The notes under the pieces: generated by a model
What the model was told of the DNA's origin: nothing
Seen by the model: the letters and a program-made list of their open reading frames with translations, nothing else
The model's database searches: none
Made by a program: the position numbers and the translations under genes
Source of the DNA: Pyrinomonadaceae bacterium
Lineage (GTDB): Bacteria > Acidobacteriota > Blastocatellia > Pyrinomonadales > Pyrinomonadaceae
DNA length: 30,000 nt
Reading direction: 5' to 3'
Assembly: GCA_036266295.1 (NCBI GenBank)
Contig: DATANL010000550.1
Location: 1-30,000, forward strand
In this document: positions 22,133 to 26,117 of the stretch, piece by piece
Layout: each line of letters opens with the position of its first letter
Position numbering within the stretch: the first letter of the stretch is position 1

Positions 22133-22241
22133 GGAGCGCGGGCATCCCTGCCCGCATGAGCGCGAAGCGCGAACGTCGCCTATTTGATTAAGCACATCGA
22201 GCGTGCTGCGCAGGGTTTGCGGGCAGAGATGCCCGCGCTCC
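22133..22241. repeat. REP doublet, family E (GGAGCGCGGGCATCYCTGCCCGC)
   Basis: GGAGCGCGGGCATCCCTGCCCGC (22133-22155) and the inverted arm GCGGGCAGAGATGCCCGCGCTCC (22219-22241), with a 63-nt spacer. Same family as the RAYT flanks. Confidence 0.92.
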
Positions 22242-22971: not shown

Positions 22972-23061
22972 TTTGGAGTGTGGCGGCTTGACGCCGCTGT
23001 TTCAAATCTGCCATCGCGCCGGTGATGAAGTGGAAAGCGGCGTCAAGCCGCGCACTCCAAA
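22972..23061. repeat. REP doublet, family D, copy 2
   Basis: TTTGGAGTGTGGCGGCTTGACGCCGCT (22972-22998) and the inverted arm AAAGCGGCGTCAAGCCGCGCACTCCAAA (23034-23061). Confidence 0.9.
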
Positions 23062-23117: not shown

Positions 23118-23567
23118 ATGCGAGCCGTAGTTCAGCGCGTCACGCGCGCTTCAGTTGCAGTTGATGGAGAAGTGCTCGGCGAGATCGGAAACGGTCTCGT
23201 CGTTCTTGTAGGGATCGCGCGCGATGATACGAAGGTCGAAGCGGCTTACCTCGTCGACAAGATTTCGAACCTGCGCATCTTTGATGACGAAGACGGGAAG
23301 ATGAATCTCTCGGTCAAAGACGTAAACGGCGGGTTGCTGATTGTTTCCCAATTTACTTTGTACGGTGATGTCCGTCGGGGCCTGCGGCCGTCATGGATCG
23401 ATGCTGCGCCGCCGGAAGTCGCTGAGCCGCTCTATGATTTTTTTGTGCGTCAGGCGCGCTCAACCTTGGACGAAGTTGCGACAGGTAGATTTCAGGCGAT
23501 GATGCAGGTCGAGTTGATTAATGATGGACCAGTAACGATACTGCTCGACAGTAAGAAATTGTTTTAG
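23118..23567 (+). CDS. dtd: D-aminoacyl-tRNA deacylase
   Basis: [45 protein letters not shown]. Confidence 0.97.
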
Positions 23568-23604
23568 CGCACGCATTCTGCGGCGGGCCGCGTGCACTGC
23601 CCGC
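23566..23604. repeat. Decayed family-E REP
   Basis: AGCGCACGCATTCTGCG-GCGGGC...GCCCGC aligns with GGAGCGCCCGCATCCCTGCGGGC and overlaps the dtd stop codon. Confidence 0.5.
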
Positions 23605-23622: not shown

Positions 23623-24291
23623 TTGTTAATTAAAGCGAGACTCATTCTGATTTTAGGCGCCCTGGCTTTGCTGGCATTTGCCGGATGTGACAATAAACCA
23701 AATTCGAACTCGCCGGCCAACAAACCAGCGAACACCAACGCGCCCACCGGCGACGTCAAGACGGCGATCAAGCCCGCGCCCGACTCGCAAGTCGCGGTCA
23801 TTGAAACCGCCGATTACGATCGCATCGTGATCGAGCTTTACCCGAACGTCGCGCCCAAGCACGTCGAGCGCTTCAAGAAGTTGATTAGCGAGAAATTTTA
23901 TGATGGCACCGCGATCCATCGCATCGATCCCAGCCTGGGAATTATTCAAGGCGGCGACCCGGTTACGAAGACAGGTAACAAGTCGATGTGGGGCACCGGC
24001 AATTCTCCTTATCCCAATGTGCCGGCCGAGTTCAGCGACATTCCTTACGAGCGCGGCACGCTGGGCGCGGCGCGCACCAACGACATCAACGGCGCCAACT
24101 GCCAGTGGTTCATCACGCTCAAGCGCCAACCCGCGTTCGACAAGAAGTACACCGTCTTCGGCAAAGTGATCGAGGGCATCAAGAACGCGGAAGTGATCAT
24201 GATGGCGCCGACCGAAGAAGGCAGCACGCGGCCGGCTGAGAAAGTATTGATTAAGAGCGTGACGCTGCAGCCCCGATCTAATTTCCCGTAG
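23623..24291 (+). CDS. Cyclophilin-type peptidyl-prolyl cis-trans isomerase, lipoprotein
   Basis: SD AGGAGG with TTG start. Lipobox FAG-C. APKHVERF, FYDGTAIHR, IQGGDP, CQWFI, YTVFGKVIEG. Confidence 0.92.
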   Translation: MLIKARLILILGALALLAFAGCDNKPNSNSPANKPANTNAPTGDVKTAIKPAPDSQVAVIETADYDRIVIELYPNVAPKHVERFKKLISEKFYDGTAIHRIDPSLGIIQGGDPVTKTGNKSMWGTGNSPYPNVPAEFSDIPYERGTLGAARTNDINGANCQWFITLKRQPAFDKKYTVFGKVIEGIKNAEVIMMAPTEEGSTRPAEKVLIKSVTLQPRSNFP

Positions 24292-24336
24292 GAGCGCCCG
24301 CATCCCTGCGGGCGGGTCGCGCGCATCCCTGCGCGC
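24291..24336 (+). repeat. Left REP doublet flanking RAYT (family E)
   Basis: GGAGC-GCCCGCA-TCCC-TGCGGGC followed by GGGTC-GCGCGCA-TCCC-TGCGCGC. Confidence 0.92.
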
Positions 24337-24344
24337 ATGTCTTT

Positions 24345-24947
24345 ATGAAAGCGCAACTTCCAGGATCAGAGTCGCGCTTAGGTTGGCACGGCCGCGGCTA
24401 CCTCCCTCACTTCGAGGGTGGCGAGCTCGCCCAATTCATCACTTTCAGATTGCATGACTCACTGCCGCGAGATGTAGTCATTCGCTGGAAAGAAGAGTTG
24501 AAGCTTCAGCCGAGCCTTGAAGTGCAATCCTTGATGCGAAAACGCGTTGAGGTCTACCTCGATCAAGGACACGGAGACTGCTATTTGCGAAATCCTCATA
24601 TTGCTAACGTGGTTCAGCGCGCCCTCCTCTTTCATGATCAAATAAAATACCGGCTGAGCGCGTGGGTAATCATGCCGAATCACGTCCATTTGCTTTGCAC
24701 ACCATTGGCAGGACACTCTCTTGCTGACATCATGCACTCGATTAAATCGTTCACCGCGAGTGAGGCGAACAAGATGCTGAACCGGAAAGGAAGATTTTGG
24801 CAGAAAGAGTATTTTGATCGATACATTCGAAATTCGAGACAGTTCGGCCGGGCTGTGACTTATCTTGAGAACAATCCAGTGAAGGGAAATCTGTGTTATA
24901 AGGCGGAAGATTGGCCGTTTAGTAGCGCGGCGTTGCGAACGAAATAA
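24345..24947 (+). mobile_element. rayT: REP-associated tyrosine transposase (RAYT / TnpA-REP, Y1 HUH family), 200 aa
   Basis: RGYLPH, FITFRL, HUH motif in WVIMPNHVHLL, IKSFTA, FWQKEYFDRYIRN, catalytic Tyr in YLENNP, WPFSSA. REP hairpins on both sides. Confidence 0.93.
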
Positions 24948-24950
24948 GAA

Positions 24951-24995
24951 GCAGGCAGGGATGCCTGCGCACCGCCCGCAGGATGCGGGCGCTCC
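24951..24995 (-). repeat. Right REP doublet flanking RAYT (family E), inverted relative to the left
   Basis: The reverse complement reads GGAGC-GCCCGCA-TCC-TGCGGGC then GGTGC-GCAGGCA-TCCC-TGCCTGC. Confidence 0.92.
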
Positions 24996-25003
24996 GACGG
25001 CGC

Positions 25004-26005
25004 TTAAACCTTCGGAAATAAAATCGGCAGCGCAACTTCGGCGGTGAACATGCAGCGGGCGTTGTGACCGCACAGGGGCACGACGACGACTTGATGCTGC
25101 GCGTTGTATTTGGCTTTAACGTAAGCCGCAAAGGCCTGGCCGCGGGCGAGTCGCGTCGGTCCCTGGGCCATCGCCGGACACGACGAATCGAATCCCGCCA
25201 GCGGTAACACATCCAACTCGCCGAGTAGATAAGTAACCGGCCGCGACGCCAGTTGCTTCTTCAATTGCTCGTCGGGAATCTTTGCGGTGTAGCCGGTGCG
25301 GCTTTTCAAACCATAGGGCCAGGTGTCGTAAGTCGTGCAGTTGCGCGCGTCGCCGAACGGACGCAACTCGTTGGTGGCGCCGCCCGGACGTTCAGCATCG
25401 AGATAGGAATAGCTCGAGGGATTGGAAACTACGTAAGTAATCGGAATCGAGATCGATTCGTGCACCTGGTTGCCCATCTCATAGCGCGTCACGAATTGTC
25501 CGCCGGCCGAATGACCTGAGATGACAATGGCTTTGAGGTTCGGAAAGTTTGCTTTATTTGCCAGCGCCCGCACGATCGCGTCCATGAAATCATAAGACGT
25601 CAGCTTTGGATTATTCGTGGCCACGCCGCCTGATCGCCAACTGTCGCCGCCGCAAGGCCAATTGACTTCTTTCGGCCCCAGCGCGTCACGGCAGCCGGTG
25701 CCGTTGTTTGAAGCCATGCGCGGTGAGATCACGATCGTGTCGTTGAAGGCGTTGGCGAGAAATGCCGCCGCCAGGCTGGTGCGAAAATAATTATCCGCGT
25801 CGCGACCCTGACCGTGCACCACGATGAGAGCGCGCACAATCTTTTCGTTCTTCTGGTCCAAAGGGTACGTGCTGTAAACGAGTGAGCGAGATTCACCGGC
25901 GAGACTTACCCAACGGGTGCATTCATCGGTGGCTTTGATGCAAGGTTCCGCGGCGTACGCGGGCATGAAGACGAATAAGGCAGTCAGCAGAAGCAGGATG
26001 CGCAT
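25004..26005 (-). CDS. Secreted alpha/beta hydrolase, 333 aa
   Basis: Signal MRILLLLTALFVFMPAYA-A, HGQG oxyanion region, nucleophile GHSAG, C-terminal catalytic His candidate (CGHN). Start moved from 26092 to 26005. Confidence 0.88.
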   Translation of the reverse strand: MRILLLLTALFVFMPAYAAEPCIKATDECTRWVSLAGESRSLVYSTYPLDQKNEKIVRALIVVHGQGRDADNYFRTSLAAAFLANAFNDTIVISPRMASNNGTGCRDALGPKEVNWPCGGDSWRSGGVATNNPKLTSYDFMDAIVRALANKANFPNLKAIVISGHSAGGQFVTRYEMGNQVHESISIPITYVVSNPSSYSYLDAERPGGATNELRPFGDARNCTTYDTWPYGLKSRTGYTAKIPDEQLKKQLASRPVTYLLGELDVLPLAGFDSSCPAMAQGPTRLARGQAFAAYVKAKYNAQHQVVVVPLCGHNARCMFTAEVALPILFPKV

Positions 26006-26117
26006 AATGCGCGGGAGAATATCGTGAGAGGAAAAATCGCGCAAGCAAGTAGCGCAGATTATTATCTGCGTTTGTCGGATTGAACAACGCAAATAACAAT
26101 CTGTGTTACCTGCTTAG

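Follow-up and report, generated by a model that had tools for sequence, protein, structure and literature searches.

The window, meaning the whole stretch of 30,000 nucleotides of DNA that was analysed, is contig C550 of a soil MAG that named relatives place in the Pyrinomonadaceae (Blastocatellia, Acidobacteriota), and which comprises 833 contigs, is 87% complete and has a G+C content of 56.6%. Between two convergent genes of this window lies a cassette of 705 bp (24291–24995) composed of a RAYT gene and the hairpins on each side of it. The conserved left neighbour (23623–24291, plus strand) encodes a cyclophilin-type peptidyl-prolyl isomerase (Pfam PF00160, 1.5e-36) and adjoins the RAYT gene in every occupied genome. 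The right neighbour (25004–26092, minus strand) is an alpha/beta-hydrolase-like gene, with a match to Pfam PF12697 (3.3e-5) that is below the cut-off of that model, and its presence is mosaic across the genus. The stop codon of the cyclophilin gene (TAG, 24289–24291) and the left end of the cassette overlap by one G, and the hydrolase stop codon (25004–25006) lies 8 nt beyond the right end; these coordinates bear out the tight fit between convergent genes that had been claimed for the cassette.

The RAYT ORF (24345–24947, plus strand) is intact and encodes a Y1 HUH nuclease of the TnpAREP type with a length of 200 aa, an assignment based on profile searches, a structure match and motifs. The gene product matches Pfam Y1_Tnp (E 4.8e-10, score of 40 against a cut-off of 23) and passes the threshold of NCBIfam NF047646, the REP-associated tyrosine transposase model (91.3 bits, cut-off 80); the IS200 transposase model NF033573 gave 28 bits and fails its cut-off of 55. 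The sole relative with a solved structure is TnpAREP of E. coli (PDB 4ER8, E 3.8e-9). H113-V-H115 forms the HUH motif and Y173-x3-N177-P the tyrosine motif, and in the alignment to 4ER8 the residues H113/H115, Y173 and N177 pair with H59/H61, Y115 and N119. The claim of an intact Y1-HUH transposase is therefore upheld by the Y1_Tnp, NF047646 and 4ER8 matches together with the catalytic motifs. Since dS is saturated (>1) in most RAYT pairs, only the closer, unsaturated pairs are informative for dN/dS; in these the ratio is approximately 0.08–0.10, and the medians of the neighbouring genes are 0.05–0.09. These ratios indicate that the intact RAYT copies are under strong purifying selection.

The left flank of the gene begins with an outer REP (24291–24313, plus strand) composed of a GGAGC tag (24291–24295) and a hairpin (24296–24313) with the stem GCCCGC/GCGGGC around the loop ATCCCT. 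The linker GGGTC (24314–24318) and an inner hairpin (24319–24336) with two GCGCGC arms around the same loop follow on the same strand (24314–24336), and 8 nt separate the end of this hairpin from the RAYT ATG. A mini-ORF of three codons (ATG TCT TTA TGA, 24337–24348) starts at the base of this hairpin and shares bases with the start codon of the RAYT; no Shine-Dalgarno sequence is evident. On the right, 3 nt past the RAYT stop codon, the minus-strand inner unit (24951–24973) consists of a hairpin with the arms GCAGGC and GCCTGC around AGGGAT (24951–24968) and a linker (24969–24973). It is followed by the outer REP (24974–24995, minus strand), which contains a hairpin (24974–24990) and the tag GCTCC (24991–24995), reading GGAGC on the minus strand.

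Each two-hairpin unit therefore consists of a GGAGC tag followed by two 6-bp stems, which carry the same ATCC(C)T loop and are separated by a linker of five bases. The two arms of the cassette are mirror images with their tags facing outward; they are identical at 39 of 46 positions, and the differences in the inner stems are compensated. This layout confirms in every detail the original prediction of two tandem, mirrored hairpins per side with GGAG outward at 24291–24995. Folded as single-stranded DNA, each flank forms two hairpins, and the two flanks reach -22 and -20 kcal/mol (z -4.1 and -3.1), respectively. The left outer REP is present at all orthologous loci with compensated stem changes, and the left inner stem of the orthologues reads GCGCGC, GCACGC or GCAGGC, compensated every time. 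The conserved foot is GGAG(C) and not the canonical GTAG (GT[AG]G), and TAGGAGC is read in only some of the copies. Atypical REP feet have been reported for some classes (PMC6006769), and the GGAG(C) foot is a variant that does not disqualify the gene from RAYT membership.

Copy number and descent of the RAYT gene

Among 36 genomes of the genus, all hits with 63–83% identity to the RAYT lie directly after the cyclophilin gene; the rest exhibit at most 59% identity and are paralogues located elsewhere. The same split by locus was observed when a single genome from each of 185,579 GTDB species was scanned. The orthologue occupies the cyclophilin site in 18 genomes and is syntenic in 18/18, although it is broken by a stop codon or frameshift in five of them (G007, G015, G017, G032 and G033). 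The best second match in the host genome, itself 87% complete, is a paralogue with 57% identity, and no second orthologue was found in any relative within the 45 genus genomes and the one-per-species scan. Two candidates for a second copy were rejected: G007:C568 covers the cyclophilin-proximal part of the known locus and reflects a contig overlap, and G020:C392 represents a third paralogue, whose REP is different. The plasmid collection contained one distant match only (32% identity), and the phage collection contained no RAYT match. RAYTs with 50–59% identity (L108–L173) also occur in MAGs labelled Chlorobium, Gemmata, Binatia, Anaerolineales, Verrucomicrobiota, Alphaproteobacteria and others, a distribution across phyla that suggests old horizontal spread or binning errors.

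A host tree was built from six flanking proteins (2163 columns) with an outgroup from five other families. The well-supported clades G000/G015/G023, G008/G017, G018/G033, and G036 with G007/G024/G029/G031 are common to the host and RAYT trees. G032 is the first branch of the host tree and falls in the unresolved base of the RAYT tree, and the sole discordance between the trees is the unresolved position of G001/G020. The RAYT tree is thus broadly congruent with the host tree, a pattern that points to vertical inheritance. Domesticated RAYTs are characterised in the literature by a fixed locus with a congruent phylogeny (PMC5581495; bioRxiv 10.1101/2021.07.10.451892).

The original prediction regarded the cassette as a candidate autonomous element, a view to be abandoned if the RAYT proved to be single-copy, syntenic and vertically inherited with no empty sites. 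The gene is single-copy, it is syntenic in all of its carriers, and the broadly matching trees and the low dN/dS suggest vertical inheritance; empty sites do exist. The candidacy therefore fails on three of these four counts.

The dispersed doublet family and other REPs of the genome

A pattern search identified 47 copies of the two-hairpin unit, or doublet, in this genome. Nothing but the tag, loop frame and linker is fixed in the pattern, and its reversed form gave no matches in all 45 genus genomes, so that chance is excluded as the source of the 47 forward matches. In 44 of the 47 doublets, the free triplets at the centre of the outer stem show perfect complementarity, with six stem variants represented; of 39 inner stems 33 pair, and these comprise ten variants. 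Because the stems pair across so many variants, it is the structure that is conserved and not the stem sequence. GCCCGC, the outer stem of the RAYT's own flanks, is a minority form (7/47, two of which are these flanks). At six loci (on C48, C182, C436, C540, C608 and C639) doublets occur as inverted pairs, approximately 55 nt apart and with tags outward, and these are REPINs built of doublets. As the doublet is the unit of a dispersed family with some inverted pairs, the cassette looks like a doublet REPIN with a gene in its spacer. The description of the locus as a REPIN with the transposase in its spacer is apt, the layouts being equal except that the RAYT replaces a spacer of 15–20 nt.

The doublets are plausibly the cognate repeat family of the window RAYT. 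Their median density is 5.75 per Mb in genomes with the RAYT, intact or broken (n=16), and 1.16 per Mb in those without it (n=15). In phylogenetically independent pairs, the association of RAYT presence with doublet density has the expected direction and is not significant (p ~0.125), so it is not counted as support. The genome G035 (95% complete) is an exception to the trend, with 43 doublets and no RAYT of any clade in the whole genome at E 1e-10; an intact doublet lies directly upstream of its cyclophilin gene.

Two related REPs had been noted 0.7 and 2.1 kb upstream of the cassette. Both exist, but they differ in kind. The nearer one (23566–23604, plus strand), in the spacer between dtd and the cyclophilin gene, is a decayed doublet of the window RAYT's family (D1). 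The other (22133–22241) is a REPIN of a sister family (I1) with the stem GCGGGC...GCCCGC, and its inner sequence matches the flank of the 57% identical second RAYT, which is located on C821 (L002, G000, 1436–2140) between two FtsX/MacB-type permease genes. The flanks of the C821 RAYT carry the commonest REP of the genome, with the same stem. The REPIN at 22133–22241 belongs with the C821 paralogue and not with the window RAYT, because both the stem and the adjoining inner sequence are common to the C821 flanks. The proposal that the cassette is the likely source of the local REP population is consequently retained for the doublets, as plausibly cognate, and dropped for the REPIN 2.1 kb upstream.

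The genome contains at least two more families of GGAG-tagged REPs. A REPIN at 22975–23058 of the window belongs to an unrelated GGAG-tagged family; it carries GCGGCTTGACGCCGC in its arms, which are 100% complementary, and approximately 70 tagged copies occur in the genome.

Empty sites, rearranged cassettes and their explanation

A search for empty cyclophilin-hydrolase junctions in relatives had been proposed, and such junctions were found nested inside occupied clades: G035 beside G025, G022 and G012 with G018 and G033, G019 beside G036, and G011 and G013 with G029. Parsimony requires at least 12 presence/absence changes over 31 genomes. The empty sites are best read as losses, and not as places that never held the cassette, because they are nested among occupied sites and the RAYT tree is congruent. 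At G022 the joint is exact and the two stop codons abut (TAG/CTA), and its close relatives G018 and G033 keep the cassette. G012, of the same clade, has GGAGC joined straight to TCC, and one terminal tag is left in G009. Decayed left doublets remain in G010 and G004, and G030 retains the left doublet and 37 codons, along with a foreign REPIN and the right tag. In G002 another REPIN family occupies the site, and in G027 (L037 2155–3500) the cassette is replaced by 1.35 kb of other genes, an insert with two paralogous small ORFs of 210 and 149 aa that have a hydrophobic N-terminal stretch. A metagenome contig from a near relative (X3) joins 24290 to 25008 with 71 other letters replacing the cassette, and is a RAYT-less allele.

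Precise excision as a general account of the clean empty sites was rejected, as G035 and G019 are clean but not base-precise and G022 alone is exact. Joints from 24328 to 24951 or 24960 in X2 and X4 were likewise discarded as excision at this locus, since their sides are short and they come from dispersed doublet REPINs. The spacer is a general indel hot spot, given that the hydrolase gene is itself mosaic, and allele exchange between relatives could be a source of nested empty sites. A different conserved palindrome, of the CTCCGTGTCCTCTGTGG type, is located in the cyclophilin-orf131 spacer of G014, G011 and G003 (L043, L044 and L047), which have neither the RAYT nor the hydrolase gene there.

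Occupied sites also exhibit rearrangements. In G001 (L013 1431–2145) and G020 (L012 1–740) the ORF is inverted relative to the cyclophilin and hydrolase genes, and the doublets keep their sides, as judged by the inner stems; the two genomes are sisters in the RAYT tree, and the flip is one event in their common ancestor. Outside the right end there are tandem copies of the terminal half-stem with the GCTCC tag, five in G026 (L009), three in G029 (L010) and two in five others (L007, L013, L015, L017 and L030). A partial repeat of the tag is found outside the left end in several genomes, and also at 13 of the 47 dispersed doublets of G000. The joints, the flip and the end-tag copies could be scars of cutting and joining by the RAYT, or of ordinary slippage and recombination at inverted repeats.

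The locus is very probably a REPtron, namely a RAYT that is single-copy, chromosomally fixed and vertically inherited and that lies between the two members of an inverted pair of cognate two-hairpin REP units. This explanation rests on homology, the catalytic motifs, the conserved and compensated flanks, the dispersed cognate family, synteny, tree congruence and selection. Catalysis, mobilisation in trans and regulation by the RAYT system are proposed from what is known of related systems. By analogy with E. coli TnpAREP, the protein would bind the hairpins in single-stranded DNA, guided by the 5' GGAG(C) foot, and would cut and rejoin DNA by means of Y173 and the metal bound at the HUH motif, and dispersed doublets and doublet REPINs may occasionally be mobilised in trans. 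On this explanation the RAYT gene itself does not move and was already in place behind the cyclophilin stop codon when the genus began to diversify. It is under purifying selection where it is kept and has been deleted or pseudogenised many times, and the hairpins beside the start codon may damp read-through expression from the cyclophilin gene. Several observations count against a REPtron: the tag is GGAG(C) where GTAG is canonical, the association of the RAYT with doublet density is not significant in independent pairs, the 12 or more changes amount to a high rate of loss given how strongly selection preserves the gene, the outer stem of the RAYT's flanks is a minority form among the doublets, and G035 retains its 43 doublets with no RAYT found. 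According to PMC6006769 and PMC3733652, the published REPtron does not transpose as a unit, and the behaviour of the RAYT here agrees with that of published RAYTs (PMC5581495; bioRxiv 10.1101/2021.07.10.451892; PMC6006769).

That the 705-bp cassette is instead an autonomous IS-like element, a REPIN with its own transposase that still moves as a unit and seeds REPs, is extremely unlikely and already largely refuted. Its symmetric ends, the layout it shares with the mobile-looking doublet REPINs, the existence of empty sites and the inverted gene of the G001/G020 lineage are all in keeping with such an element. Yet a second locus or copy was never found in the 45 genus genomes and the species-wide scan, and the gene is practically absent from plasmids and phages. 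The broad congruence of the RAYT and host trees, a dN/dS resembling that of the neighbouring genes and the nesting of empty sites within occupied clades also speak against it. Nor is the RAYT at all likely to be a relic, inactive on repeats, with flank hairpins whose main role is to terminate transcription of the convergent genes or to stabilise their RNA. REPs in the window commonly adjoin stop codons and the gene is lost or broken in many lineages, as a relic would lead one to expect, but the intact copies are under strong purifying selection with conserved catalytic residues, the exact doublet architecture is kept across the genus with compensated stems, and fewer doublets tend to occur in gene-less genomes.

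The proposal that the RAYT product still excises or flips its own cassette in place, with no reinsertion elsewhere, is an extension of the REPtron explanation and not a strict rival to it. The clean losses, the footprint, the inversion and the end-tag copies would then be its scars. This is possible but on the whole doubtful. The exact joint of G022 beside cassette-bearing relatives, the GGAGC-TCC footprint in G012, the lone terminal tag in G009, the repeated tags at both ends and at dispersed doublets, and doublets that stay put around a flipped ORF in G001/G020 are all consistent with it, and REPIN excision has been observed in Pseudomonas (PMC3337134). However, inverted repeats can give rise to deletions and inversions, and short repeats to slippage, in the absence of any transposase, and other losses are plainly imprecise (G035 and G019) or leave decayed remnants (G010, G004 and G030). 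Nested empty sites could arise through allele exchange between related strains as well, and the adjoining hydrolase gene has the same mosaic presence and absence. If the cassette is indeed acted upon by its own product, the scars would be a natural read-out of the cutting sites of the enzyme; the exact joints and duplicated end tags, which might mark these sites, are the only parts worth further work.

Comparison with known systems

The domesticated view of RAYTs is not overturned by this locus, which is an ordinary REPtron in a little-described phylum. It adds a clean, well-sampled REPIN-RAYT system from the Acidobacteriota to a literature based mostly on Gammaproteobacteria, one in which the repeat unit has two hairpins, the foot is GGAG and the stems are free to vary while pairing. 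The published rules hold in this distant phylum: each repeat family has a single RAYT, the locus is fixed, descent is vertical and repeats tend to be fewer after loss of the gene.

Members of the IS200/IS605 family (IS608 and ISDra2) share the catalytic fold, subterminal hairpins and a guide tetranucleotide with the system described here, and their hallmark is precise excision. They are multi-copy, found at varied loci and carried on plasmids, unlike this RAYT, and their ends are asymmetric where those of the cassette are mirror images. Their tyrosine motif contains Q, whereas N is found here. The TIRtrons and TIRYT genes of Acidobacteria (Di Nocera 2013, PMC3733652) are closer in setting, being RAYT-like genes framed by inverted repeats, some of them double palindromic, and some of these repeats are moderately abundant dispersed families (PMC3733652). 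The present locus differs in its classic tagged hairpins and clear dispersed family, and the likeness to TIRtrons is one of shared motifs only (PMC3733652 supplement).

The REPIN-RAYT systems of Pseudomonas and Neisseria (PMC3116915, PMC3337134, bioRxiv 10.1101/2021.07.10.451892) similarly pair each REPIN family with a single RAYT, and several such families and paralogues share a genome. Their RAYTs occupy the same extragenic space across relatives with a congruent phylogeny, and their repeats tend to thin where the RAYT is lost. Repeat populations are smaller here, in the tens as against hundreds, and the unit is a hairpin doublet, hence a REPIN with four hairpins. REPINs have been reported only for RAYT Groups 2 and 3 (Bertels and Rainey; PMC3116915, PMC3337134, bioRxiv 10.1101/2021.07.10.451892). 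Group 1 / subclass 2.1 is reported to have no REPs, so the clear REPIN family seen here would be more notable if the RAYT belonged there.

The REPtron of E. coli K-12 (tnpAREP/yafM between REP/BIMEs; 4ER8, PMC3479197) has the same Y1 HUH catalytic residues. As Ton-Hoang 2012 is cited in PMC6006769, it is likewise a single-copy gene between inverted REP hairpins whose 5' foot has four bases, further copies of these REPs are scattered through intergenic DNA, and the unit is, in that account, not seen to move. Protein similarity to E. coli TnpAREP is low (40 bits) and the host here is acidobacterial. The foot is GGAG(C) here and GTAG in E. coli, and one inverted pair is present in place of three REPINs. 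The flanks of the acidobacterial gene are fixed two-hairpin units with short, perfect 6-bp stems, in contrast to the long, imperfect stems of the E. coli REPtron.
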